Shown piece after piece: positions 36,283 through 52,361 of a stretch of 64,000 nt of DNA. Source of the DNA: Alphaproteobacteria bacterium (GTDB taxonomy: Bacteria > Pseudomonadota > Alphaproteobacteria > UBA8366). How positions within the stretch are numbered: position 1 is the stretch's first letter; each line of letters starts with the position of its first letter. The notes below the pieces were generated by a model that saw nothing but the letters and a program-made list of their open reading frames with translations, had not been told where the DNA came from and ran no database searches. Where the stretch lies: assembly GCA_009377445.1 (NCBI GenBank), contig WHUA01000004.1, forward strand, positions 215,630-279,629, written 5' to 3'. Position numbers and translations under genes: made by a program.

Positions 36283-36690
36283 TCAACCGCCACCGGATAC
36301 GCCCTCGGCCTCGGCCCGCGACAGGAGCCCGTCGCCGTCGCGGTCGGCCTGACCGAAATCGACCGCGCGGGCCTCGGTGAACTCGGTAAGGCTGAGCGTG
36401 CCGTCGCGGTTGCGGTCCGCCCCGGCGAAGAGCTGCGCCGGCACGCCCGGCAGGTCGGCCGGAGCCAGCCGGCCGTCGCGGTTGCGGTCGGCAAAGAAGA
36501 AGACCTCGACCATGCGCTGGTGGAACTCACCGCGGTCGATGAAGCCGTCGCTGTTGCGGTCGGCGACCGCGAAGGGCTCGGCCGGATCTTGCGCCTGGGC
36601 CGGCGGAACGCCGGACGAGAGAAAGAGTGCCGGCGGAACGCCGGACAAGAGAAGGAGGGCCGCCGGCAGGGCTTTGAGGAGGATGCGCAT
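36283..36690 (-). CDS. secreted EF-hand calcium-binding protein (4 EF loops)
   Basis: Start MRILLKALPAALLLL (ATG 36690) in ORF 36283..36774(-). Loops DRNSDGFIDRGEF, DRNRDGRLAPADL, DRNRDGTLSLTEF, DRDGDGLLSRAEA. Confidence 0.8.
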   Translation of the reverse strand: MRILLKALPAALLLLSGVPPALFLSSGVPPAQAQDPAEPFAVADRNSDGFIDRGEFHQRMVEVFFFADRNRDGRLAPADLPGVPAQLFAGADRNRDGTLSLTEFTEARAVDFGQADRDGDGLLSRAEAEGVSGGG

Positions 36691-36799
36691 GGCGGCGTAT
36701 CCTAGGGGCTCGACCCCGCACCGTCCACCGCCCGTAAGGCATGCCATTCCGGCTACACAAGCCGGAGCGAGCATGTTAAAAGACCGCCCTTCCTCCCGC

Positions 36800-36873
36800 T
36801 GGGGGATAGTTTAACGGTAGAACCGCGGACTCTGACTCCGCTAGTCCTGGTTCGAATCCAGGTCCCCCAGCCA
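36800..36873 (+). tRNA. tRNA-Gln (anticodon CUG)
   Basis: TGGGGGA-TA-GTTTAACGGTAGAAC-C-GCGGA-CTCTGAC-TCCGC-TAGT-CCTGG-TTCGAAT-CCAGG-TCCCCCA-G-CCA folds as a cloverleaf. Closely parallels E. coli tRNA-Gln. CCA is encoded. Confidence 0.9.
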
Positions 36874-36899
36874 ATTGAAATCCCTAGACATTCTGCTTT

Positions 36900-37220
36900 C
36901 TAGTCTTCCATGCTGAGGGGTTTCGCCGCATTTTTCGCCGCATCCAGCGTCACGTCAGCAAAAGCGCACGCTCCGCCGCCGCAAGAGCCTCCGAAGTGTC
37001 GGTCTTCATCGAACGCATACCCGTCGATGCGGTAGCCCGCATTCCTGATCCGCCCCTCCTGATAGAGATCGAACGTGTTCTCAAGATGACCAGCATCTTC
37101 GAGGCGCTCAAGCAGGAATCGCGTAAACACCTCCTCAGTGAATGGTGCTTCGTCTGACAGACCCGCTTCGATTTCATGCACGATATTGGCGGCAAACTGG
37201 TGGAGGGAATCATCACTCAT
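36900..37220 (-). pseudogene. AIPR-family (abortive-infection) protein, N-terminal ~75 codons only
   Basis: MSDDSLHQFAANIVHEIEAGLSDEAPFTEEVFTRFLLERLEDAGHLEN..YQEGRIRNAGYRIDGYAFDEDR matches the N-terminal pattern I recall for AIPR proteins (normally >500 aa). The tail after DEDR is unrelated. Confidence 0.5.
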
Positions 37221-38197
37221 GCAGAGTCCTGCCTGCAGAAAAGATCGAGGATGTCGGCAGAATCAGCGGACAGGCCGGATATGGTGCGAAGGTCCAGAGC
37301 GTAGCTGGCATCCGTAACTGCCGGCGGGACTGCTGATCTCGTGAGCCGGGGAAACAGATCATCAATCGTGTAGCCTGAGATCTCCCTGAGCTGAAATAGG
37401 GGCTGAGAGCGGGACGCCATATCGTCCGGCATGAGACCTCGTCGAAGCAGCGCATTTTCGAAGGACCGCCGCGCCATTTCATCGGGAAGCAGCACGGCGA
37501 TATTCGCGATCAGGCCCTCCATCGACCTGCCGTCGGGCGCCTCTATCAGGCGAACGTGGAGCAGGTCAAGTCTTCTCAAGCCCGTGGTCTCAAGCTGGTC
37601 GAGCGAAGATATCCGGATCGCTGATGCTGGTCCGAGGCTGGCCTTGACCTCAACAGCGTGACCATTTTGGACGAAGTCATGGAGGCCGTCATCCGGGGCT
37701 TTCCAGCTGTTCTGCGCAGCAGGGTTGATGGATACCAGTCTTTCCAGGATGAGTAGCTCGCCAATGAGACCTATCGTCTCCTCGCGGGAAAGGCGGCTGC
37801 GGCGCTCGCGGAGGAACCGGCGCCAGGCATCGAGACGCGCGAGAAAGTACGCCAGCTCGTTGCCTAGCTCTGCGAAGGTGGAAGCCGAGATCGCATCGCC
37901 ACAGAGCGTGGTAAAGAGGTCGATACGGGTGCCATCTTCCAGCGACAGAACCATCATTGGCCCTTGCTCGTTGGCAGTAACGCCAAGGCGCATGCCGCCG
38001 ACCTCAAACAGGGAATCCGGTTGAGCCTCTGCATCTATGAGGAGGCAGGGTGCGTCATCAACGGACCGGAGCGCTGCATAGGCATCCAGGGCAAGTTCGT
38101 ATGACAGACGCCGTGTCCGGAACTGCCTCGCCTGAGGCGGATGTTGCCCAAGCTCGGTCCAGGCCTCCTGGAGGGTGTCGTGCCAGAGCGAGCTCAT
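37217..38197 (-). CDS. PD-(D/E)XK motif protein (DUF4420-like nuclease)
   Basis: 326 aa, apparently intact. ...WKAPDDGLHDFVQNGHAVEVKASLG gives the D...E-V-K nuclease motif. ATGA overlaps with both neighbours. Confidence 0.65.
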   Translation of the reverse strand: MSSLWHDTLQEAWTELGQHPPQARQFRTRRLSYELALDAYAALRSVDDAPCLLIDAEAQPDSLFEVGGMRLGVTANEQGPMMVLSLEDGTRIDLFTTLCGDAISASTFAELGNELAYFLARLDAWRRFLRERRSRLSREETIGLIGELLILERLVSINPAAQNSWKAPDDGLHDFVQNGHAVEVKASLGPASAIRISSLDQLETTGLRRLDLLHVRLIEAPDGRSMEGLIANIAVLLPDEMARRSFENALLRRGLMPDDMASRSQPLFQLREISGYTIDDLFPRLTRSAVPPAVTDASYALDLRTISGLSADSADILDLFCRQDSA

Positions 38198-38690
38198 ACC
38201 TGCTGCTCCCTCTGGCGTACAGGGTTTTCAAGATAGGAGCGTCGCCGTGCATTTTTGCTGTCGGGGAAGCTCACCACTACGCCGACGACGGGCCTGTCCG
38301 TATCGGCATTACCGACCTCAGGATCGAGAGGATAGATGATCAGCAGACCATTCTGGGGGCGTTCACCTCTGATTGTCCGGATATTGGGGCCAGATGGCCG
38401 ATCAATTGGGTCCTTGCCAACCAACTGCCTTTCCTGGTTTGTCTGCTTCAGTGCCCTCTCGTACTCCTCATCACTCAGATCGATAGCTTCATCAAGTGGG
38501 CTCAGTATCGATCTGATAATGTAGCGCTCAGCAACATCCCTGTCGGTGCGAGGCGAACGCCGGACACATCTGAACGTCCTGCCGCCAAGATTTGCCTCCA
38601 TGCCGTCAGCCGTCGGGAGAAAGACCGTCCAGGCCGTCAGCTCTTTTTCCCTGATCCGCTCGCCAATATACTGCGCCAGCTTCGGCCCCT
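38194..38690 (-). pseudogene. C-terminal fragment of the upstream operon partner (slot normally held by a Z1-domain protein)
   Basis: ORF 38194..38757(-) 'starts' at a TTG inside integrase-derived sequence. ...RYIIRSILSPLDEAIDLSDEEYERAL...NGLLIIYPLDPE. The Z1 identity is inferred from operon position only. Confidence 0.35.
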
Positions 38691-38695
38691 CGATC

Positions 38696-38902
38696 TCAAG
38701 GTTCTCCGGCGGGAATGAAAGATTCAGGAGAAACTCGACAATGTCCTGTCCAGGCAAACGTCATGATCTCCTTCACGTTGAACCCTTGCTCGATCCAGAG
38801 AGAAACCGCGAAATAACGAAGGTCGTGCCAGCGCAGCTCGACCCCGAGTTCGCGACATAATGGCTTGAACCGCCTTTTGAGGACGGTGGTGTGCGCCCTC
38901 AC
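38696..38902 (-). pseudogene. tyrosine recombinase/integrase, C-terminal fragment
   Basis: ...LGVELRWHDLRYFAVSLWIEQGFNVKEIMTFA.. is the box II region (HDLRH-like) of Tyr recombinases. No N-terminal or catalytic R-box part is present. Confidence 0.6.
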
Positions 38903-38924
38903 CCGTCCCCACTTGTTCGGGAAA

Positions 38925-39149
38925 CCGATCGTTACCGAGGCTGCTCATCCATTCGGCGTGACAGGCGACACGGGCGCGCCGGGCTTCCGTTCGCAGCATG
39001 TGGTGGAAAAGGATATTGTGCGTAAACACGATGACCTGCCGCCCCTTTGCCGCTTCTTCGGCTAGACGTTCGGCAACGGCCTGCATGCGCGTAGGCTGTC
39101 CGCTCCAATGGGTAGAGGTTGGGTGGGTGCTTATCCATGAACCGATCAA
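38925..39149 (-). pseudogene. AAA/ABC-type ATPase fragment (defence-associated type)
   Basis: ...AVAERLAEEAAKGRQVIVFTHNILFHHML... resembles the Walker-B-distal 'QVIVFTHD' region of RloA/PrrC-like ATPases. About 70 codons only. Confidence 0.4.
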
Positions 39150-39258
39150 ACCAGGTAGATTAACCCTTGATGGCCTCCTCGGCCCTATGTAGCAAACAAG
39201 CTCCTCTCATCCACTAGCGTCGCCATTGGGATTGGACAGATCTGAAAGGCAGTTACCG

Positions 39259-40548
39259 ATGACCGAACCAGCAGACCTCGACGTAACTTCAGCGTCCATA
39301 CTGATGGAGAAGGGAAAGTTAACGGCGGAGGCTCTGATGGCTTCATGCCTCGCTCGCGTCGATAAGCGCGAGGACGCGGTACGGGCATGGGCTTATATCG
39401 ACGCTGATCTGGCGATGGCCGCTGCCCGTGCATGTGATCGCGAAACGCGGCGCGGGCCGCTGCATGGCATCCCCATTGGCGTCAAGGACATCGTCGATAC
39501 GTCTGACATGCCAACGACCTATGGCTCGCCCATCTACAACGGTAACCAGCCGGCTGCTGATGCCGCGTGTGTTGCGCTCGCACGAGAGGCAGGGGCCGTT
39601 ATCATGGGAAAGACGGTGTCGACTGAATTTGCCACGCGCCATCCTGGAAAGACCCGAAACCCGCACAACGCCGCGCATACGCCCGGCGGTTCGTCGAGTG
39701 GTTCAGCGGCCGCCGTTGCCGATCACATGGTTCCAGCAGCGTTCGGCACGCAGACAACAGGGTCGGTTATTCGGCCATCTGCCTATTGCGGCATTGTGGG
39801 ATACAAGCCGACATTCGGGAAAATCAACCGGACAGGGGTAAAGCCCCTGTCTGATACAATGGACACGGTCGGACTCCATGCCCGATCTGTCCCGGACATC
39901 GCCCTGATCCTTTCGGTGATTTCCGGACAGTCTTTCCCGGACCTCAAGGTTGTAGCCGAGGAAATGCGCCCCTGGCGCATTGGGATTTGCCGGACTCCAT
40001 ACTGGGACCGCGCCGACGCCGCAACTCATGCGCTCCTCGACCAGGTCGCGGACCGATTGGGGCGTGCTGGCTCTAAAGTCCGGGAGGTTGTTCTGCCAGA
40101 ACCATTTCCGGATGCATTTCATGCCCAAGACGTGATCAACGAGTTCGACACATGGCGGGCGCTCGCATTCGAACGAACACGCCATCCGGAAAAGCTATCA
40201 ACGACGTTGTCTGAGCGACTGGCCCGTGCGGGGCGGCGCAGTGCAGCTGAGTACACCGCTGCGCATAACCTTGCGACCAAGTGTCGCGGACTTGCCGATG
40301 AAATGTACTCGGAATGGGATGTTCTTGTCGTGCCTGCCGCGCCCGGGGAGGCGCCCAACGGATTGGGTTCCACGGGCGACCCAATCTTCAACCAGCTTTG
40401 GACTCTTTTACACGGCCCGGCGGTTACTATACCGGCTGGCCATGGCCCTTCGGGATTACCCTTAGGCATACAGTTGGTTGGCCCCCGCGGTCATGATTTG
40501 CGGGTGCTCGCTTGTGCGAACTGGGCCGCAGATTTTTTGGCATGTTGA
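39259..40548 (+). CDS. amidase (amidase-signature family), copy 1
   Basis: ORF 39226.. begins at a TTG. ATG 39259 gives MTEPADL. LHGIPIGVKD, GGSSSGSAAAVA, GTQTTGSVIRPSAYCGIVGYKPT (Ser-cisSer-Lys triad context). Confidence 0.85.
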   Translation: MTEPADLDVTSASILMEKGKLTAEALMASCLARVDKREDAVRAWAYIDADLAMAAARACDRETRRGPLHGIPIGVKDIVDTSDMPTTYGSPIYNGNQPAADAACVALAREAGAVIMGKTVSTEFATRHPGKTRNPHNAAHTPGGSSSGSAAAVADHMVPAAFGTQTTGSVIRPSAYCGIVGYKPTFGKINRTGVKPLSDTMDTVGLHARSVPDIALILSVISGQSFPDLKVVAEEMRPWRIGICRTPYWDRADAATHALLDQVADRLGRAGSKVREVVLPEPFPDAFHAQDVINEFDTWRALAFERTRHPEKLSTTLSERLARAGRRSAAEYTAAHNLATKCRGLADEMYSEWDVLVVPAAPGEAPNGLGSTGDPIFNQLWTLLHGPAVTIPAGHGPSGLPLGIQLVGPRGHDLRVLACANWAADFLAC

Positions 40549-40867
40549 TCCCCAAGCCGTAACATGAGAAGCCATTCCTCAGTCTGCGGGCGGCAAATTT
40601 GAAGATGTCTGCAAATTGGCTATAGTCGCTATTGCAAGCGCGCAATGACCTGCGCGCTGCCAGACGCCTTCCCGGCCTCCGAACCCGATTTCGGCTGCCG
40701 ACAATAATTAGCGCACTCCGGTGCCATAACGGATCTGGCATTTTCATCCGCCACGCTCTCGCGGGCGATAGTGGGTCTAAGAATTTGCAATTGTTGATGC
40801 CGACGGGCCACCGGCAGCTTTGGGGAGTTTGCAGTCTTGCGTTCACGTAGCAGCATAGTTCTGATTT

Positions 40868-41821
40868 ATGGCTAACTATATTCTCCGGCGCCTTCTGTAT
40901 GCGATTCCGATTGCGATCGGCGTCACGGTCATTTGCTTTTCCCTGATTTATCTCGGACCAAGCGACCCGATAGCGGCGGTCATGCCAGACGAAGCATCCG
41001 CCGCAGACGTCCAGCGGATTCGCGAGGCTTACGGGTTCGACAAGCCGGTGCCGGTCCAGTATGCGCTATGGCTGATGCGCGCGGTGCAAGGCGATTTCGG
41101 TAATTCGCTGCAATCCAACCGGCCTGTCCTCGATGAACTAATCCCGGCGCTCCAAAACACCTTGCGCCTTGCCGTCTTCGCCGCCGCGCTGAGTTTCGCG
41201 ATTGCCGTCGTCGTCGGCAGCGTGGCTGCCTATTCTCAGGGAACCTGGCTCGACAAAACAGTGACGTCGTTCGCAATCACGGGGGTCAGCGTGCCCCATT
41301 ATTGGGTGGCGATCATGCTGGTCATTGTTTTCGCTGTCGAGCTCGGATGGCTTCCGGCCATGGGCATGGGTACGGGCAGCTCGCGCGACTGGGCCTGGGA
41401 CGCTGAACACATGAAGGCGCTCATACTGCCGGTAATCTCGCTTTCTCTAATTCCAGCCGGAATCATCACGCGCACCACCCGCGCAAGCGTCCTTGAAGTG
41501 CTGAGCCACGATTACGTCGAGACGCTACGCGCGAAGGGGCTGTCGGAAGCGACGGTGCTGCGCCACGTCCTGAAGAACGCCTCGCCGACCGTGCTCGCGG
41601 TGACGGGACTTCAGTTCGGCCATCTGCTGGGAGGCTCTATCCTCATCGAAACGGTTTTTGTCTGGCCGGGTACGGGCTTTCTGCTCAATGAATCCATTTT
41701 CAAGCGCGATCTGCCAGTGCTGCAGGGCACGATTCTCGTCCTCGCCATGTTCTTTGTTTTCGTGAATCTTACAGTGGATATCATGCAGACTTGGCTTGAT
41801 CCCCGCATCAAGAGAGACTGA
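40868..41821 (+). CDS. ABC transporter permease (DppB/OppB-like)
   Basis: 317 aa. MANYILRRLLYAIPIAIGVT..., ...DYVETLRAKGLSE, typical of peptide/nickel-type permeases. Confidence 0.9.
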   Translation: MANYILRRLLYAIPIAIGVTVICFSLIYLGPSDPIAAVMPDEASAADVQRIREAYGFDKPVPVQYALWLMRAVQGDFGNSLQSNRPVLDELIPALQNTLRLAVFAAALSFAIAVVVGSVAAYSQGTWLDKTVTSFAITGVSVPHYWVAIMLVIVFAVELGWLPAMGMGTGSSRDWAWDAEHMKALILPVISLSLIPAGIITRTTRASVLEVLSHDYVETLRAKGLSEATVLRHVLKNASPTVLAVTGLQFGHLLGGSILIETVFVWPGTGFLLNESIFKRDLPVLQGTILVLAMFFVFVNLTVDIMQTWLDPRIKRD

Positions 41822-41823
41822 TT

Positions 41824-42759
41824 ATGGTAGATACCAAATCCGTCGCTTGGACCGATAGCATGTCAGCTGACAGTGTGGCGGCTGCACAGGCCGGGGAGAT
41901 TCCCATCGGTCAGCTTCGGTCGCGCGGGTACTGGCGCTCCGTTTGGGTGCGCTTGCGCCGTGACAAGGTTTCCGTTGCCTGCGCCGCCGTCCTCATTCTG
42001 ATTGCGCTATCGGCGATTTTCGCCCCCCTGCTGTCGCCGCACGACCCATATCAAGGAAACGTCGTCAAGCGCCTGGCGCCGATCGGCACAGCCGGCTACC
42101 TACTCGGCACCGACGAACTGGGCCGCGATATGCTCTCTCGCTTGCTCTACGGCGGGCGCGTATCGCTCTTCATCGGGCTTTTCCCTGTCTTCTGCGCGCT
42201 CATTGTTGGCGGTACAGCCGGCATCGCCGCCGGTTTCATCGGAGGCCGGACCAACATGGCGATCATGCGCCTTATGGACGTTTTCTATGCGTTCCCGTCC
42301 ATCCTCCTGGCGATTGCGATTTCTGGTGCGCTGGGCGGCGGCTTCTCTAATGTCATCCTGGCACTGGCGCTGATCCTGGTTCCGCCGATCACGCGCGTCG
42401 CCGAAAGTGTGACGACCCAGGTTCGCAGTTACGACTTTGTGGAAGCTGCGCGGGCCAGCGGTGCTGGGACATGGACGATCATCCGTGTGCATGTGCTCAG
42501 CAACGTCCTTGGACCGATATTCATTTATACGACAAGTCTTATAAGCTTCAGCATCATCGTCGCCTCGGGCCTCAGCTTCCTCGGCCTCGGCGTCACGCCC
42601 CCGACGGCAGACTGGGGACTGATGCTGAGCACGCTACGCCAAGCGATCTGGATCAACCCTTATGCCGCGGCTCTTCCAGGTTTGATGATCTTCGTCACGT
42701 CCCTTTCCTTCAATCTGCTCAGCGACGGGCTGCGCAGCGCGATGGATGTGAGACTATGA
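41824..42759 (+). CDS. ABC transporter permease (DppC/OppC-like)
   Basis: 311 aa. ...LLGTDELGRDMLSRLLYG..., ...FVEAARASGAG. Confidence 0.9.
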   Translation: MVDTKSVAWTDSMSADSVAAAQAGEIPIGQLRSRGYWRSVWVRLRRDKVSVACAAVLILIALSAIFAPLLSPHDPYQGNVVKRLAPIGTAGYLLGTDELGRDMLSRLLYGGRVSLFIGLFPVFCALIVGGTAGIAAGFIGGRTNMAIMRLMDVFYAFPSILLAIAISGALGGGFSNVILALALILVPPITRVAESVTTQVRSYDFVEAARASGAGTWTIIRVHVLSNVLGPIFIYTTSLISFSIIVASGLSFLGLGVTPPTADWGLMLSTLRQAIWINPYAAALPGLMIFVTSLSFNLLSDGLRSAMDVRL

Positions 42760-43856
42760 GTGATTGCAGAAAGAACATTCGCCGCGAGCCCGTAACAACC
42801 TGCCCGCCGGCGCCGACGGAGAGCCAACCTTTATTATCTGTGAAGGGGCTGCGCAAATACTTCCCAGTAAAGGGAGGGCTTCTCAAACGGCAGATCGCCG
42901 CCATACAAGCAGTCGACGACGTGTCCTTCGAGGTCCGGCGGGGTGAGGTGCTGGGAATCGTCGGTGAATCCGGGTGTGGCAAGTCGACCACGGCCCGGCT
43001 CCTGATGCGGCTTATCGAACCGGACGCCGGGCAAGTGATCTTTGATGGCAAGGAGGTCGGCATGCGCGACGGCATGACAGTCACCGACCTGCGGCGTCAC
43101 GCTCAGATGGTGTTCCAAGACTCCTATTCCTCGCTCAATCCACGCCTTCCTGTGGAGGATACGATCGCCTTTGGCCCCGTGGTCCACGGCACAGCCAGAA
43201 GCAAGGCGAAGGAACGCGCGCGGTATCTCCTGAACGAAGTCGGGCTAGACCCATCTCGGTTTGGCAGGCGCTACCCGCACGAACTTTCGGGCGGTCAGCG
43301 TCAGCGCATCAACATTGCACGCGCGCTGGCGCTGCAGCCACAGATGGTCTTCCTGGACGAGGCCGTGTCCGCATTGGATAAGTCGGTGGAAGCGCAGGTA
43401 CTCAATCTCCTGCTTGATTTGCGGGAGGAATTCAATCTGACCTACGTCTTCATATCCCACGACCTCAACGTGGTTCAATACATCAGTGATCGCGTGCTTG
43501 TGATGTACCTCGGCAAGGTCGTGGAGGTCGGTCCTATTGGTGATGTGTATAAGGAACCGGCGCATCCCTACACCCACGCGCTGCTGTCTTCCCGTCCGTC
43601 GATGGACCCGGAGGACCGCAAAAAAGAGTCGCCGTTGTCTGGCGATCCGCCGACGCCGATCAATCCGCCGTCGGGCTGCCGCTTCAGAACCCGATGTGCA
43701 TTTGCCGAAGACGTGTGCGCAAGAGCCGTTCCCGCACTCACGCCGATTCGCGCCGACGGCAGTTGGCTGGCGGCCTGTCACATGATTATTCCCGGCTCGG
43801 GCCACAGCAGGGCTGCTGCCATTAATGAGGCAACGACCGGAGGCACGAATGGCTGA
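42756..43856 (+). CDS. ABC transporter ATP-binding protein (DppF/OppF-like)
   Basis: In frame in ORF 42471..43856. ATG 42756 overlaps the permease stop. GESGCGKST, LSGGQRQRINIARAL, C-terminal PPSGCRFRTRC. Confidence 0.9.
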   Translation: MSDCRKNIRREPVTTCPPAPTESQPLLSVKGLRKYFPVKGGLLKRQIAAIQAVDDVSFEVRRGEVLGIVGESGCGKSTTARLLMRLIEPDAGQVIFDGKEVGMRDGMTVTDLRRHAQMVFQDSYSSLNPRLPVEDTIAFGPVVHGTARSKAKERARYLLNEVGLDPSRFGRRYPHELSGGQRQRINIARALALQPQMVFLDEAVSALDKSVEAQVLNLLLDLREEFNLTYVFISHDLNVVQYISDRVLVMYLGKVVEVGPIGDVYKEPAHPYTHALLSSRPSMDPEDRKKESPLSGDPPTPINPPSGCRFRTRCAFAEDVCARAVPALTPIRADGSWLAACHMIIPGSGHSRAAAINEATTGGTNG

Positions 43857-44880
43857 GACAATGGGCCTCGTGCAAGACGTAAGCGCCACGCCTTCGAGAG
43901 TGCCGCCAATTGTGCAGGTCGATGACCTGCACGTTCGCTTCGTCAGCAAGGATGCCACCGTCTATGCGGTGAACGGCGTGAGCTTCACGCTCGACCCCGG
44001 CGAAGTGCTTTGTATTCTCGGCGAGTCCGGATCCGGCAAGAGCGTAACACTAAGGGCGCTTATGCGATTGCTGCCGCGCAAGCGCGCTGTCATCAATGGT
44101 CGCGTCATTGTCGACGGACACGACATCCTTTCGCTCTCGACCTCCGCCCTTTCCCGCGTACGGGGCGAGATTGTGTCGATGATCTTCCAGGAACCAATGA
44201 CGGCGCTCGACCCGGTTTATTCGATCGGGGAACAGATCACCGAGACCGTTCGTCGGCATGAGAAGATTGGCCGCGCGGCGGCCGAGGCGCGTGCGTTGGA
44301 GTTGCTCGAACTGGTTCAGATACCGTCTGCCAAGCGGCGCCTCAAAGCCTTTCCACACGAACTTTCAGGCGGACTACGTCAGCGGGCGATGATCGCGATC
44401 GCCCTTTCCTGCCGCCCGCGCGTTTTACTTGCCGACGAGCCGACAACCGCCCTCGACGCGACTGTGCAGATTCAGATCCTGCTGTTGCTGCGCCAGTTGC
44501 AAAAAGAGCTCGGGATGAGTGTCATATTCGTGACCCACGACCTCGGCGTAGCAGGTGAAATTGCCGATCGGATCACCGTCATGTATGGTGGCCGATTCGT
44601 CGAAGAGGGGCCGACGACCGCGGTTATGCGCGATCCGCTTCATCCCTATACCCGGGGTTTGCTTGCTTCCACGGTGCATGGACAGATGCACCGTGAGCGC
44701 CTGCGGACGATCGAAGGCTCGCCGCCGAACATGGAGATGCTGCCCGCCGCCTGTAGCTTCGCGCCGCGCTGTCGCTACGCCGTCGACAGATGCCTCGAGG
44801 GTGTGCCCGACCTGCACCGGCCATTTCCCAATCGCAGTGCCCGCTGCATCCGTCTCGAGGAAATCGGCTCAATGACGTGA
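43849..44880 (+). CDS. ABC transporter ATP-binding protein (DppD/OppD-like)
   Basis: ATG 43849 (GGAGG SD), 8-nt overlap with the previous gene. GESGSGKSV, LSGGLRQRAMIAIAL, ...PAACSFAPRC. Confidence 0.9.
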   Translation: MAETMGLVQDVSATPSRVPPIVQVDDLHVRFVSKDATVYAVNGVSFTLDPGEVLCILGESGSGKSVTLRALMRLLPRKRAVINGRVIVDGHDILSLSTSALSRVRGEIVSMIFQEPMTALDPVYSIGEQITETVRRHEKIGRAAAEARALELLELVQIPSAKRRLKAFPHELSGGLRQRAMIAIALSCRPRVLLADEPTTALDATVQIQILLLLRQLQKELGMSVIFVTHDLGVAGEIADRITVMYGGRFVEEGPTTAVMRDPLHPYTRGLLASTVHGQMHRERLRTIEGSPPNMEMLPAACSFAPRCRYAVDRCLEGVPDLHRPFPNRSARCIRLEEIGSMT

Positions 44881-44986
44881 TGTAAACCGGAACCACGCTT
44901 AGTACAGATTCCAAAGACGTATTGTTTGTACCGCTGTCCACGGAGTTTATGGAGTTCGCCCGCGCGAACGGAAAAGGATATCTGAA

Positions 44987-46645
44987 ATGCCCAACGCCCA
45001 ACAATCATCGGACACCGACCTGCATTCGTTGACGATTGCCGATGCCTCACGGCTGATCGAGCGCCGGAAGCTGTCACCGGTAGAGCTTACTGAAGCACGG
45101 CTGCGGCGGATCGAAGCCCTCGACCCGCAGCTCGACGCGTTTATCACGCTCACGGCGGAGCGTGCGATCGATGAGGCCCGGAATGCCGAACGTGAGATCG
45201 TGGCAGGCAAATATCGCGGGCCGTTGCACGGCATTCCCTTTGCCCTCAAGGATATCTATTGCACCAAGGGGATTCTGACCACCGGCCATTCCAAGATTTG
45301 CGCTAATTTCGTGCCGAACGAGGATGCGACGACCGTGCGCAAGTTGAGCGAGGCGGGCGGTGTCCTGTTCGGCAAGCTGGCAACGCATGAATTCGCCCAC
45401 GGCGGCCCTTCCTTCGACCTGCCTTGGGCGCCGGCGCGCAACCCCTGGAACCGCGAGCACTTTACCGGCGGATCATCGAGCGGCTCAGGCGCCGCGGTTG
45501 CCGCCGGCTTCGTCATGGGGGCCATGGGCTCGGATACGGGTGGCTCGATTCGCAACCCCGCCGCGCTGTGCGGGCTCGTCGGATTGAAGCCGACCTACGG
45601 CCTCGTGAGCCGGTATGGCATCTATGCCAATTCCTTTACCTATGACCATGCCGGCCCGCTTACATGGAGCGTGGAGGACTGCGCGATCATGATGCAGACG
45701 CTCGCCGGCCACGATGTGTGCGACCCGGCGAGCGCGGACCGGCCCGTGCCTGACTATCGGGCGGATCTGACGAAGGACATCAAAGGCCTGAAGATTGGCG
45801 TCTTGCGTTATTTCTACGAAGAGGACGTGCCGGTTGCCGCCGCCACGAAGCAGGCGCTAGAGGCCGCCTATGACGTACTGAAGTCGTTGGGCGCAATTCT
45901 CGAGGATGTGCGCATCCGGCCGGCTCAGGATTACTACGACGTCAAGATCGTGTCGGCCGAATCCGAGCTCTTCGCCGTCCACGATCGCAATCTGCGCACA
46001 CGTGCGGGCGACTTCGGGGAGGATTTCCTCGGCCGATCGCTCGCTGCAATTTTCGTCCGCGGCGGTGACTATGTCCAGGCAATGCGGGAACGCCGCCGCA
46101 TGGTTGCCGAGATGGCCCCGATCTACGAGAAATACGACCTTCTCCTTACGGCCGCCCCCGGCCCGGCGCCACGCTTCGAGGCTTGGCGTACAATCCACTT
46201 CTGGCAGAAGCCATCGTTGACGACGCCATTCAACGTCACGGGCGGGCCGGCGCTAGTCCAGTGCATCGGCTTCACGAGCGACGGGCTACCGTTGTCGATG
46301 CAATTTGTTGGGCGGCCTTTTGATGACGCCTTGGTGATGCGCGTTGCCCACGCTTATGAACAGGCGACGCCGTGGCGCAAACGCCGGCCGGCGCTCGATC
46401 CGTCTGCTGCATTCTCCGCCGACCTGCCGCCTCTGCCGGCACCGGAAAAGGCGACGATCAGCGAGCGCGAAAGGGACGAAGTTGCGGTCATTTGTCGGCG
46501 TGCCGGCCTCAATCTCAGCGAGCGGGTATTCGAGCAACTGTGCGCGACCGCACCCTACATCGAGGCGATGGTCGGGCGTCTGCGCCGCGACCGCACCTTC
46601 GCCGAAGAGCCAATGAACGTGTTCCAATTTCCCAGCCACGGCTAG
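44987..46645 (+). CDS. amidase (amidase-signature family), copy 2, with ~80-aa C-terminal GatC/AtzG-like extension
   Basis: 552 aa. LHGIPFALKD, GGSSSGSGAAVA, GSDTGGSIRNPAALCGLVGLKPT. Extra tail ...RRAGLNLSERVFEQLCATAPYIEAMVGRLRRDRTFAEEPMNVFQF. Confidence 0.85.
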   Translation: MPNAQQSSDTDLHSLTIADASRLIERRKLSPVELTEARLRRIEALDPQLDAFITLTAERAIDEARNAEREIVAGKYRGPLHGIPFALKDIYCTKGILTTGHSKICANFVPNEDATTVRKLSEAGGVLFGKLATHEFAHGGPSFDLPWAPARNPWNREHFTGGSSSGSGAAVAAGFVMGAMGSDTGGSIRNPAALCGLVGLKPTYGLVSRYGIYANSFTYDHAGPLTWSVEDCAIMMQTLAGHDVCDPASADRPVPDYRADLTKDIKGLKIGVLRYFYEEDVPVAAATKQALEAAYDVLKSLGAILEDVRIRPAQDYYDVKIVSAESELFAVHDRNLRTRAGDFGEDFLGRSLAAIFVRGGDYVQAMRERRRMVAEMAPIYEKYDLLLTAAPGPAPRFEAWRTIHFWQKPSLTTPFNVTGGPALVQCIGFTSDGLPLSMQFVGRPFDDALVMRVAHAYEQATPWRKRRPALDPSAAFSADLPPLPAPEKATISERERDEVAVICRRAGLNLSERVFEQLCATAPYIEAMVGRLRRDRTFAEEPMNVFQFPSHG

Positions 46646-46722
46646 TTCCAGACCATCGCCGCGGCTGCGCCGACGGCGTGAGTCGCGCACGCAAGTAACG
46701 AATGCGACATCAATGAAGGAGT

Positions 46723-48342
46723 ATGGTTATGAATGGAAGTTTTAGACGCCTGACGGTAGGAATCGGCCTCGCAGCGGCGTTTGCCGCATTTTCCAGTTCG
46801 AGCGTTCAAGCGGAAGGAACGCTCACGCTGGGCATGACAGTCGCGGATATCCCGAGCTCTAAGGGGGCCCCAGATCAGGGTGCGGAAGGTATCCGCTGGA
46901 TGGGCTTCACGGTTTATGACTCACTTGTCTACTGGAACCTGAACCAGAGCAAGACCATTCCGGTAATCGTGCCGGCGCTCGCGCACAAATTTTACCCCAA
47001 CCCGGAAAACAACAAAGAATGGATCTTCGAGCTGCGGAAAGACGTGACCTTCCACGACGGCTCCAAATTCAATGCCGATGCGGTAATCTGGAATCTCGAC
47101 AAGCTATTCAAGGAGAAGGCGCCACAGTACGACCTGCAGCAGCGGCGTGCCGTCGCGTGGCGGCTTGCGGGTATAAAGACTTGGCGCAAGATCGATGATT
47201 ACAAGGTCGCTATCGGCGACAATGTGCCGAATGCGTTGATCCCGCATCAAATCGTCTATGTTCACATATCAAGCCCGAAACACTGGGCAGACGTGGGCGG
47301 TTGGGAAGCATTCGCCAAGCATCCTTCGGGCACGGGTCCGTTCAAGGTCGAGGAGATTGTGCCCCGCGAGCGCGCCGTGCTTGTGCGCAATGACAACTAC
47401 TGGGACAAGGACCGCATCCCGAAACTCGACAAGGTGATTCTCTTGCCGATGCCCGAGGCGAGCACGCGAACGGCGGCGATCCTATCCGGGCAGGCTAACT
47501 TTATAGAAGCGCCGTCGCCGGATGCGGTCCCCCGGCTTAAGTCTTCGGGAATGCAAATCATAACCAACCCCTACCCGCATGTTTGGCCATATGTATTGCG
47601 ACTGGCCGGCGAGAATACGCCGATGAAGGATGTACGCGTCCGCAAAGCGCTGAACCTCGCCATAGACCGCGACGCCATTGTCCAGCTGTTGCGGGGAATG
47701 GCTGTTCCGGCCAAGGGCCACGTCCTTCCCGACAGTCCCTGGTTCGGCAATCCCAGTTTCAAGATCGAATACAATCCGGAAAAGGCCAAGGCGCTGCTCA
47801 AGGAAGCCGGCTACGGCCCCGACAAGCCGCTGAAGATCAAATTCATGATCTCGACATCCGGCTCCGGTCAGATGCAGCCGATGCCAATGAACGAGCTCGT
47901 TCAACAGCAGCTGAAAAAGGTCAATGTCGACCTCTCGTTCGAGGTGACCGAGTGGCAAGCGCTGCGCGCCCAACGCGGCAAGGGACCACTTGATCCCGGC
48001 GCACGCGAGATCCACGCTCTCAACAACAGCTTTGGGACTTATGACCCATACAGTGCGTTCGAGCGATTCTTCAGCTGTGACCTGTTGCCGCCAAAGGGTT
48101 TGAACTGGGCGGGCGTTTGCGACGACGAGATACAGGCGCTGATAAAAAAGATCAAAGAGACCTTTGATCCCAAGGAGCAAGACGAGCTCTTGGCAAAGAT
48201 CCACGAGCACGTTGTCGATAACGCATACTGGGTTTGGGTGGTGCACGATGTGAATCCGCGGGCGCTTCGTCCCGAGGTCAAGGGATTCCGACAGGCAAAG
48301 AGCTGGTACCAGGACCTCACCCAGATCTACATCGAAAAGTAG
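46723..48342 (+). CDS. ABC transporter substrate-binding protein (family 5, peptide/nickel type)
   Basis: 539 aa. Signal peptide ...AAFAAFSSSSVQA. ...WIFELRKDVTFHDGSKFNADAVIWN... The ATG at 46729 has better SD spacing (GAAGGAG). Confidence 0.9.
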   Translation: MVMNGSFRRLTVGIGLAAAFAAFSSSSVQAEGTLTLGMTVADIPSSKGAPDQGAEGIRWMGFTVYDSLVYWNLNQSKTIPVIVPALAHKFYPNPENNKEWIFELRKDVTFHDGSKFNADAVIWNLDKLFKEKAPQYDLQQRRAVAWRLAGIKTWRKIDDYKVAIGDNVPNALIPHQIVYVHISSPKHWADVGGWEAFAKHPSGTGPFKVEEIVPRERAVLVRNDNYWDKDRIPKLDKVILLPMPEASTRTAAILSGQANFIEAPSPDAVPRLKSSGMQIITNPYPHVWPYVLRLAGENTPMKDVRVRKALNLAIDRDAIVQLLRGMAVPAKGHVLPDSPWFGNPSFKIEYNPEKAKALLKEAGYGPDKPLKIKFMISTSGSGQMQPMPMNELVQQQLKKVNVDLSFEVTEWQALRAQRGKGPLDPGAREIHALNNSFGTYDPYSAFERFFSCDLLPPKGLNWAGVCDDEIQALIKKIKETFDPKEQDELLAKIHEHVVDNAYWVWVVHDVNPRALRPEVKGFRQAKSWYQDLTQIYIEK

Positions 48343-48634: not shown

Positions 48635-50050
48635 ATGGCGAACTCCGACGTGTTGGATATGAGCTTGGCAGATGTTGGGGACGCAATCCGGCGGCGTATC
48701 ATTTCTTCCGAGGAAGTCACGCAGGCCTGTATCGAGCGGGCCCAGGCTACGCAATCAACGGTAAACGCGTTCATTTCGTTGGAAGCCGATGAGGCGCTCG
48801 CAACAGCCCGCGCATTGGATGCCGAGTTGAAGCAGGGGAAGATCAGGGGGCCGCTTCACGGCGTGCCACTGGCGCATAAGGACATGTTCTATCGAAAGGG
48901 ACGTGTCGTCACCTGCGGCTCTACAATCCGGCGGGATTTCGTCCCGGATATAACGGCGACCGTTATCGCACGTCTGGAGGAGGCCGGCGCTGTCTATCTC
49001 GGCGGACTCAATATGTCGGAGTTTGCGGGCGGACCCACCGGTCACAACGAGCATTTCGGAGATTGCTGCAATCCCTGGAATCCTCAACATGTCAGCGGTG
49101 GATCTTCCAGCGGTTCGGCAGCGGCCGTGGCCGCCCGCGCAGCGTATGGTGCGCTCGGATCCGATACCGGTGGCTCCATCCGAATACCTGCCGCATGCTG
49201 CGGGGTCGTAGGCCTAAAACCCACCTACGGCCTCATCAGCCGACACGGCGCGATGCCCCGCTCCTGGTCGCTCGATCACATGGGGCCGCTTACGCGCACG
49301 GTGCGCGACTGCGCTCTCATGACCCAGGTCGTCGCCGGCGCCGATCCAACAGACGCGACGACAAATCCCCTGCCCGTGCCCAATTACGAAGCGGCGCTCA
49401 CTCGTGAGGTAAAAGGACTGCGCATAGGCACGCCGGTGAATTACTTCTTCGACGATTGTGAAGGCGAGGCGCGCGCCATATTCGATCAAGCCCTTGAGAT
49501 GCTAGCGGCGCTGGGCGCGAAAGTCGTGAAACTCGAGTTCCCCGCGCCGGTCACCATGGCGCGCATGAACGACACAATTTCGAAGGCGGAGGCCGCGACC
49601 ATACACCGAAAATGGATGGCTGCGCGGCCGGACGACTATGGCCACCATGTCTTCGCCCGTGTCGAAGCGGGCTTCCACATTCCCGCAACCCAGTACATCG
49701 AGGCACTCGCAATGCGAGGCCGATATACTGAGCAGGTATGTAAAGATGTGTTCGGAAATTGCGATGCTTTCCTGGCGCCTGTATTGCCGTTTCCGGCCCC
49801 GCTACGCACGGAGACTGCGTTCGGAAACGCCTCCGACGTGCCGCAACTAATTGCCCGCATGACATACCGGACGCGCCCATTCTGTTATCTTGGCTTGCCG
49901 GCTCTAAGTATCCCTGTTGGATTCACCGCTTCGGGTCTCCCGCTCGGGATGCAACTCGTTGGCCGCCCATTCGACGAGGCGACCCTGTTTGCAATAGGCC
50001 ATGCCTACCAGTCAGAAACAGATTGGCACAAAGTTGGTCCGTCTATTTGA
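48635..50050 (+). CDS. amidase (amidase-signature family), copy 3
   Basis: 471 aa. LHGVPLAHKD, GGSSSGSAAAVA, GSDTGGSIRIPAACCGVVGLKPT. Confidence 0.85.
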   Translation: MANSDVLDMSLADVGDAIRRRIISSEEVTQACIERAQATQSTVNAFISLEADEALATARALDAELKQGKIRGPLHGVPLAHKDMFYRKGRVVTCGSTIRRDFVPDITATVIARLEEAGAVYLGGLNMSEFAGGPTGHNEHFGDCCNPWNPQHVSGGSSSGSAAAVAARAAYGALGSDTGGSIRIPAACCGVVGLKPTYGLISRHGAMPRSWSLDHMGPLTRTVRDCALMTQVVAGADPTDATTNPLPVPNYEAALTREVKGLRIGTPVNYFFDDCEGEARAIFDQALEMLAALGAKVVKLEFPAPVTMARMNDTISKAEAATIHRKWMAARPDDYGHHVFARVEAGFHIPATQYIEALAMRGRYTEQVCKDVFGNCDAFLAPVLPFPAPLRTETAFGNASDVPQLIARMTYRTRPFCYLGLPALSIPVGFTASGLPLGMQLVGRPFDEATLFAIGHAYQSETDWHKVGPSI

Positions 50051-50893: not shown

Positions 50894-51068
50894 GTGGTCA
50901 TTGGAACTCCCATGCATAACTTCACCGTACCCTCTGCGCTGAAGGCGTGGATAGATCACATCGTTCGAGTTCGTCGGACGTTCAATGTAACCGCGGAAGG
51001 GAAGGTAGGCACGCTTCGCGACCGTCCAGTCTTTGTCGCCGTATCCTCAGGCGGAAGATATTCCGGGG
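50894..51068 (+). pseudogene. FMN-dependent NADH-azoreductase (AzoR) internal fragment
   Basis: VIGTPMHNFTVPSALKAWIDHIVRVRRTFNVTAEGKVGTLRDRPVFVAVSSGGRYSGE is the AzoR core. It abuts the IS110 end on the left and an unrelated gene on the right. Confidence 0.6.
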
Positions 51069-52361
51069 AGTGTCAACGGCGGAGCAATTCCAGGCCAGCG
51101 CGGCGGAGTAAAAGCAGGCCACTGGCGTGCACTCGCCAACTTTGGCGGCGGGTACCTTGTCTTCGGCATCAATGACGATACGACATCCGCCGGCTCATGC
51201 CCGGCAACCGCAGCAGGATCCTACGACCAGGATACGCTGTCTGGCATCATCAAGCGCTACCTGACGCCTACGTTTCAGGTGGCGGTCTACGAGGTAAACT
51301 CGGCCGCCACAGGGGTAACGCATCCCGTGGTCTGGGTCCCGTCCCACGAGGCGGTGCCCGTATGCAGCACTCGCGACGGGCCGCATAGCGGTGGTAAACC
51401 GGTCGGTATCGTACAGGGAACCTACTACACCCGCGCACCCGGCCCCGAATCCGTGTCAGTTGCCACGCCAGAGCTCTGGGCGCCGATCATCCGGCGGTGC
51501 GTCTTACATGAACGCCATGCCCTGCTTGCTGGCCTTGAACCGCTACTACGATCTCCCGGCCGCCCCGTCACCGAACCGGACGCACCGCTTCGGCTTTGGC
51601 ACGACGCTGCGCACTCGCGCTTTCTTCAACTCGCGGATGTCGATCCGCTTGCCGACCAACTTAAACGCGCCCACTACCAATTTACCTATCAGATCAATGT
51701 CGCCGACGGGTACCAGCTCGACATGGCGAGACTCCTGGACGAACTGAGGCGCATGGGCCACGAGGTGCAAGACCTCGTTGATCCGGGTTGGACGATGTTC
51801 TGGATCTTCGATGTACAGGAACTTGCGCCGCGCTCTGCCGGAGACGCCGCTCTCGGTGACGCCGAGTTTCTGGAATGCAGTCTGATCAAACCGCATATCG
51901 TCGAAATGACATTGCCGGACTTCTGGCGGGTTGCGCCCACCGGTATGGCTACGATTATCCGTCCGTATCGCGAAGACCGACGCAATACCGGTCCCGACCA
52001 TAAGCCAGGTACATGGCTGTGGCCTCATGTCATGGCCCGCGAGATTGTCGAGGTGATCCGGCATGCCCGCGCCTTTGCCGAACGGTTCGAGGCACCCGAG
52101 AGCGTGTCCTTGCGTGCCGAGTGGCTTGGTCTACAGGGCAGGACACTTAAGGATCCGGACAATCCGCTCTTCAGGTGGCAAGGCCGGCTCGCTCAAAGCG
52201 ACAGTCGCGTCGTCACCCGGACGGTACCCATCGCCGACCTGACCACCCGTTGGGCAGACGTAACGGCGGACATGCTTTCTGCGGTTACACGCATGTTCGA
52301 CGCGGTACTTTCCATATCGCCCCAGGAAGTCCTTGTCTGGTCGAAGAGATTTCGCAGGTGA
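51069..52361 (+). CDS. AlbA_2/Schlafen-like domain protein with unknown ~280-aa C-terminal domain (5' end apparently truncated)
   Basis: ORF 51033..52361. ...WRALANFGGGYLVFGINDD...GIVQGTYYTRAPGPESV matches the AlbA_2 core (AfaNt.GG.l.iGv.d; yiR.gs). The first ~25 aa of the domain are missing at the AzoR junction. Confidence 0.5.
   Translation, partial: SVNGGAIPGQRGGVKAGHWRALANFGGGYLVFGINDDTTSAGSCPATAAGSYDQDTLSGIIKRYLTPTFQVAVYEVNSAATGVTHPVVWVPSHEAVPVCSTRDGPHSGGKPVGIVQGTYYTRAPGPESVSVATPELWAPIIRRCVLHERHALLAGLEPLLRSPGRPVTEPDAPLRLWHDAAHSRFLQLADVDPLADQLKRAHYQFTYQINVADGYQLDMARLLDELRRMGHEVQDLVDPGWTMFWIFDVQELAPRSAGDAALGDAEFLECSLIKPHIVEMTLPDFWRVAPTGMATIIRPYREDRRNTGPDHKPGTWLWPHVMAREIVEVIRHARAFAERFEAPESVSLRAEWLGLQGRTLKDPDNPLFRWQGRLAQSDSRVVTRTVPIADLTTRWADVTADMLSAVTRMFDAVLSISPQEVLVWSKRFRR

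Follow-up and report, generated by a model that had tools for sequence, protein, structure and literature searches.

A probable remnant of an Mza anti-phage island, eroded beside a tRNA-Gln gene in an alphaproteobacterial genome

Introduction

When a single nuclease gene stands whole among the broken pieces of its former operon, has it been kept because it still serves the cell, or has decay merely not reached it yet? This question is raised by a locus in contig WHUA01000004.1 of Alphaproteobacteria bacterium (UBA8366; assembly GCA_009377445.1), a metagenome-assembled genome (MAG), which was analyzed here as a stretch of 64,000 nucleotides (contig positions 215,630 to 279,629, forward strand), hereafter called the window. 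In it, a 2.3-kb wreck of an Mza anti-phage operon adjoins a tRNA-Gln gene, and mzaD, encoding a DUF4420 protein with a PD-(D/E)XK nuclease motif, is the sole whole gene. A preliminary description, made from the sequence alone, had portrayed the locus as the stump of a defence operon and asked whether the orphan nuclease is still expressed and whether the deletions were selected. With a probability of roughly 0.85, we consider the locus to be a degraded remnant of a horizontally acquired Mza island seated at the 3' end of tRNA-Gln(CTG), in which the nuclease gene is most likely whole because the deletions are recent.

Mza (MzaABCDE) is an experimentally validated anti-phage system. The mzaABCDE operon of E. 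coli protects against T4, and purified E. coli MzaD alone cuts T4 DNA in vitro, its activity being lowered by the D187A substitution (bioRxiv 10.1101/2022.06.16.496414).

The Surviving Gene

The open reading frame (ORF) of 326 amino acids (aa) at 37217-38197 on the minus strand matched the Pfam family DUF4420 (PF14390) at 1.3e-59 and 202.4 bits (cutoff 27) over profile positions 2-305 of 306. PADLOC identified it as MzaD (4e-24, 83.6 bits), with a score similar to that of the MzaD encoded by the intact operon of locus L002 (81.2 bits), taken from Logan assembly SRR20820730. The protein search returned 395 homologues, nearly all of 323-328 aa, and tblastn placed residues 1-323 of the L002 DUF4420 protein on window positions 38197-37229 with 72% identity. 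The D...EVK motif corresponds to D174 and E183-V-K185, residues that do not vary among 30 homologues and are conserved to at least 95% in a set of 119; the earlier account of this gene as full length, of the DUF4420 family and with a nuclease motif thus held in every part. The NCBIfam equivalog model for MzaD (NF041934) was aligned from end to end but reached 139 bits against a cutoff of 420, so the window protein is a homologue, and not an equivalog, of the enterobacterial MzaD. Judged by its sequence, it is a distant alphaproteobacterial branch and not the enterobacterial protein assayed in E. coli.

The AlphaFold model of the protein (predicted local distance difference test score, pLDDT, 89.6) places the motif residues on adjacent strands (175-177 and 180-188) that follow helix 138-157, as in PD-(D/E)XK cores. 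Since Foldseek found no significant match to this model in the PDB and no sequence relative was present there, the fold assignment for DUF4420 rests on published work (PMC3424549). Across the 82 positions that are near-invariant (at least 95%) in the 119 homologues, mzaD keeps 80, the exceptions being G135R and A262S. The first of these, at codon 135 (window 37795-37793), replaces a glycine conserved in 97.5% of the homologues and sits, in the model, in the loop that links helix 114-131 to helix 138-157; the change may be neutral or may mark the onset of damage to the protein.

Truncated Neighbours and the Normal Operon

On each side of mzaD stands a piece of a former partner. Both gene pairs overlap by ATGA on the minus strand (TCAT on the plus strand, 37217-37220 and 38194-38197), in agreement with the translational coupling reported earlier for the three ORFs. 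Upstream, the 187-aa ORF at 38194-38757 (minus strand, TTG start) had no Pfam match and corresponded to positions 752-940 of the 952 of PADLOC MzaC; it had been described as a C-terminal piece, and it is one. Downstream, a 106-aa ORF at 36900-37220 (minus strand) begins as mzaE. Its match to Pfam AIPR_N (31.2 bits, cutoff 28) covers residues 32-74 only and profile positions 1-44 of 151, and tblastn of the L002 AIPR protein placed residues 1-74 on window 37220-36999 with 86% identity, so that this mzaE 5' fragment (36999-37220, minus strand) comprises codons 1-74 of about 689. The AIPR homology stops at 36999/37000 (37000 at the nucleotide level), 125 bp from the tRNA-Gln end at 36873, close to the 75 codons and 120 bp first estimated. 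With the intact operons of L002, L003 and L004 as references, the deletion end points were mapped to mzaC codon 731 and mzaE codon 75, and the mzaC and mzaE fragments are free of internal stops and frameshifts.

The architecture from which these pieces derive was established from relatives. The expected five-gene setting (Dcm methylase, HATPase, Z1, DUF4420, AIPR) was borne out: relatives at 72%, 65% and 61% identity lie in the same operon in all three contexts, and its proper name is Mza. The gene order in L002 is Vsr-Dcm-MzaB-MzaC-MzaD-MzaE, with MzaB to MzaE named by PADLOC, and a Dcm-type methylase is present in L002, L003, L004 and most long loci. For a broader survey, 45 metagenomic DUF4420 loci, gathered by an alignment-based scan after a single-protein query had returned nothing, were combined with L002-L004 and scored by tblastn with Mza proteins (48 loci). 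The AIPR gene was covered to at least 85% in 30 of the 30 loci having at least 2.15 kb downstream. Mza was also complete on the plasmids S. meliloti pRmeGR4a and Thalassospira pCSC3H3, both annotated examples, and one plasmid AIPR gene bears the annotation 'MZA anti-phage system associated AIPR family protein MzaE'.

Because the three ORFs are all open and translationally coupled, the short ORFs could be thought to represent a normal architecture and not truncations. Against this, the alignments are limited to the last 187 and the first 74 residues of proteins of 918 and 689 aa, respectively (82-86% identity), the tail of the 106-aa ORF is unrelated to AIPR, and an intact three-gene operon of the same ORF sizes was sought and found in neither the 48 loci nor the 12 plasmid hits. 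The probability of a normal short form is consequently negligible, and the truncation reading advanced at the outset stands. Nor was an orphan DUF4420 gene of the window's kind seen among the 48 loci.

As to the other components, tblastn of Mza-operon proteins across the 64-kb window revealed no remnant of the Dcm methylase or of MzaB, and three MzaB proteins, which are MutL-like ATPases (HATPase_c_3), gave no window match at E<=0.05 when used as queries. Thus, only MzaD is full length; MzaB, a full-length MzaE (about 600-690 aa) and an adjoining cytosine-5 methyltransferase are absent, and the claim that the methylase and both large partners are gone was upheld, with pieces of MzaC and MzaE remaining.

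Upstream Scraps and Integrity of the Assembly

Beyond the mzaC piece, two overlapping scrap ORFs (38696-38902 and 38724-39149, minus strand) cover the remains of two further genes. A tyrosine-integrase scrap of 58 codons (38753-38923, minus strand) was recognized by tblastn and frame translations: from 38923 to about 38753 it corresponds to residues 281-351 of a 384-aa Azospirillum lipoferum site-specific integrase, a firm match (E 8e-12 to 4e-17). It includes the RWHDLRYF box, lacks the catalytic tyrosine and is weak in Pfam (E 0.03). It may represent the Mza island's own integrase; the integrases of L003 and L004, which lie upstream of Dcm in the same orientation, did not match it. Adjoining it, an internal fragment of an AAA_13-type ATPase (38922-39092, minus strand; 57 codons, approximately residues 684-740 of 900) was assigned to PDC-S06 by PADLOC (1e-10), and tblastn aligned 39092-38922 with positions 684-740 of an AAA ATPase of 900 aa encoded by the Phaeobacter plasmid pP24_b (E 1e-19 to 1e-20). 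As the Phaeobacter protein is a full-length PDC-S06 match (3.7e-166), adjoining a PDC-S73 / restriction-endonuclease gene, the scrap derives from a second, unrelated candidate defence gene and not from the Mza HATPase. The preliminary description was therefore right about a fusion to an integrase scrap and then to an ATPase scrap; what changes is the identity of the ATPase, which is not the operon's own. The two scraps meet in different frames at 38922/38923, and when each fragment's ends are counted, at least four deletion or fusion junctions fall within 2.3 kb.

Such a mosaic might arise in the computer, if the contig were a chimera whose parts had been joined at the tRNA or at scraps that recur, and a MAG is indeed the source here. 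A second, independent assembly, that of SRR10173838 in Logan (L001), however, is 100% identical to window 36847-48197 over 11,351 bp and spans every junction of the stump together with 27 nt of the tRNA, so the junctions are not an artefact of the MAG assembly; they also lie inside ORFs with ordinary sequence on either side and not at repeats. What speaks for an artefact is that L001 ends 27 nt inside the tRNA (window 36847), as would be expected from a branching assembly graph. Taken together, an assembly or binning artefact is highly improbable. The end of L001 within the tRNA fits graph branching caused either by multiple tRNA-Gln copies or by strain heterogeneity at the hotspot described below.

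The tRNA-Gln Integration Hotspot

The intact tRNA-Gln gene (anticodon CTG; 36800-36873, plus strand) was detected by ARAGORN and scored 64.3 bits with the Rfam tRNA model; it is the window's single tRNA gene and the only feature returned by an Rfam scan of 36500-39400. Left of the tRNA, about 11.6 kb of the window aligns with the related MAG L005 at 80-83% nucleotide identity. The two are collinear exactly to the 3' end of the tRNA-Gln(CTG) gene that each carries (blastn: L005 9197 = window 36873) and unrelated after it; beyond the tRNA, L005 carries GNAT, oxidoreductase, phosphodiesterase and glycosyltransferase genes. To the right of the tRNA, synteny did not resume in the 27 kb of the window and the 9 kb of L005 compared. 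This break at the tRNA 3' end identifies the site as an integration hotspot. Base composition shifts at the same place, GC content being 0.66-0.70 on the left of the tRNA and 0.58-0.62 between 37000 and about 55000; the stump itself stands at 0.58, compared with 0.665 in the left flank and 0.55-0.61 for Mza operons in other hosts. Of the usual hallmarks of a tRNA island, the boundary at the tRNA 3' end with a synteny break relative to a relative is thus present, while an intact integrase with an attR repeat is not, the integrase being a 58-codon fragment. With up to 3 mismatches allowed, the tRNA 3' end does not recur elsewhere in the window, and a search of direct repeats for the far end of the island gave nothing informative and no far boundary.

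Some further details of tRNA-associated loci were recorded. In L003, the segment 11265-16930 contains a gene for a large serine recombinase of 516 aa, the 3' end of which overlaps that of the tRNA; a methyl-directed type II restriction endonuclease (PADLOC mREase_II, 2.7e-162) and an Mrr_cat protein are encoded between this gene and AIPR. A tRNA-Ser gene follows AIPR by 380 nt in L031, and a tRNA-Lys gene precedes Dcm in L029.

Decay or Retention of mzaD

From this anatomy we infer the order and number of the deletions, a loss of transcription and neutrality. An MzaABCDE-type island would have been acquired horizontally and seated at the 3' end of tRNA-Gln(CTG). One deletion, running from inside the tyrosine-integrase gene to mzaC codon 731, would have removed the methylase, mzaB and most of mzaC, a loss that intact relatives would put at roughly 5-6 kb. 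Another, from mzaE codon 75 towards the tRNA, would have taken nearly all of mzaE and whatever lay beyond, and further junctions would have joined on the PDC-S06-type ATPase scrap of the second defence gene. On this account, mzaD would owe its wholeness to the recency of both deletions and to the chance that neither extended into it.

The substitution patterns bear on this last point. The ratio of nonsynonymous to synonymous substitution rates (dN/dS) was 0.13 and 0.04 in the two dead fragments and 0.12 in the intact nuclease gene, and in Tajima relative-rate tests with two outgroups the window lineage did not carry surplus changes for any of the segments. Since the dead fragments are as well preserved as mzaD, with low dN/dS and no acceleration, the intactness of mzaD reflects the recency of the deletions and is not proof of retention. 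Most simply, the deletions are taken as recent relative to the divergence from L002, and the evidence leans towards recent, neutral decay. The nuclease's 90%-identity cluster consists of a single sequence, which also fits decay.

Several observations weigh against this interpretation. With a single-member cluster, there is no sister strain with which to date the deletions. In addition to its 80 near-invariant positions, mzaD keeps its motif residues, a Shine–Dalgarno-like GGGAG 8 nt ahead of its ATG and both ATGA couplings, and its continued function, as far as the sequence can tell, retains a small probability. With one outgroup, the window lineage carried fewer unique changes than L002 (15 vs 29, p = 0.035), which is equally compatible with ongoing purifying selection. 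By analogy with the E. coli enzyme, which cuts DNA alone, the orphan copy could be active if it is made. A crude sigma-70 consensus scan of 36700-39400 found no promoter-like site, a scan that proves nothing about transcription. Two segments, moreover, were not traced to an origin: that between the tRNA and the AIPR breakpoint (36874-36998; 125 bp, supplying the 106-aa ORF with its final 33 codons and stop, plus 26 bp up to the tRNA) had no match in L002-L004, the rest of the window, PLSDB plasmids or the recombinase end of L003, and the 133 bp between the ATPase scrap and the divergent amidase gene (39093-39225) had no match among PLSDB plasmids. Derivation of the first segment from an AIPR 3' end or from the end of an L003-like serine recombinase was also tried, and similarity did not exceed that of shuffled controls.

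The competing explanation holds that orphan mzaD has been retained and expressed as a stand-alone PD-(D/E)XK nuclease, whether domesticated, acting as a toxin or defence effector, or served by partners elsewhere, and that the deletions were selected for disarming a self-targeting complex. The full-length ORF with D174, E183 and K185 intact, the Shine–Dalgarno-like sequence, the confident structure model, the lack of rate acceleration and the activity of E. coli MzaD on its own would all suit it. It is countered by the absence of comparable orphans from the 48 other loci, by the single-member cluster, by the change at the conserved glycine (G135R), and by deletion of the native operon promoter region, no consensus promoter having been found. 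Between the fragments upstream of mzaD and the divergent amidase gene there are only scraps and 133 bp of unassigned DNA, the methylase/mzaB side being gone, and any stump promoter would have to sit in 39093-39225 or inside the scraps. A terminator scan gave one terminator-like site, below the shuffled-control mean of 1.8, and is not evidence either way. That one deletion could have taken the methylase, mzaB and most of mzaC together is compatible with an avoidance of self-targeting, yet selection for such avoidance is speculation. We regard this explanation as a whole as unlikely, and retention with expression of the nuclease, viewed from the sequence, as very unlikely.

Surroundings and Variant Loci

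The region from 36874 to about 55000 combines a lower GC content than the left flank (0.58-0.62 vs 0.66-0.70) with a lack of synteny with L005; either acquisition of a large metabolic island or a breakpoint of rearrangement may account for this. Right of the tRNA, it contains three amidase genes (39226-40548, 44987-46645 and 48635-50050) around a peptide-type ABC transporter. A 442-aa ORF at 51033-52361 (plus strand) gave a marginal match to the Schlafen AlbA_2 domain (25.1 bits vs a cutoff of 25.3, E 2.7e-05) and none in PADLOC; this domain is common in defence-island regulators. Among the surveyed loci, L032 (599-1711) and L037 (615-1703) encode a further HATPase paralogue (33% identity to MzaB) immediately before mzaB, and they may represent a six-gene Mza variant.

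Significance and Comparison with Known Systems

Considered as a degraded copy of a known anti-phage system, the locus represents ordinary, well-explained biology. It provides a clean, well-mapped case of the erosion of a defence island at a tRNA hotspot, in which two defence systems and an integrase have left scraps, although it carries little weight alone. It also calls for caution in annotation pipelines, which would label mzaD a 'PD-(D/E)XK motif protein' and the fragments hypothetical proteins: an intact-looking nuclease ORF within a wreck is no evidence of function. If the orphan were expressed, it would offer a natural experiment on the action or toxicity of MzaD without its partners.

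Measured against MzaABCDE, the window has lost about 80% of MzaC and about 90% of MzaE, and it lacks MzaB and the cytosine methylase that accompanies the system. Of the about 9 kb occupied by the complete L002 operon (493/498/918/326/689 aa), 2.0 kb survives in the window. Decay of Mza is not confined to this genome. L052, L016 (with a 120-aa AIPR ORF) and L053 (with DUF4420 cut at about residue 254) have different breakpoints; their Mza genes are truncated or frameshifted in loci that are otherwise canonical, and in their decay they resemble the window. A parallel in position is L003, where an Mza island of another organism adjoins tRNA-Gln(CTG) and is oriented as in the window, its AIPR end facing the 3' end of the tRNA. 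Unlike tRNA islands of the L003 type, the window lacks both a whole recombinase gene and an att repeat, and it bears scraps of at least two defence systems; like them, it combines a GC content foreign to the host with a synteny break at the tRNA.
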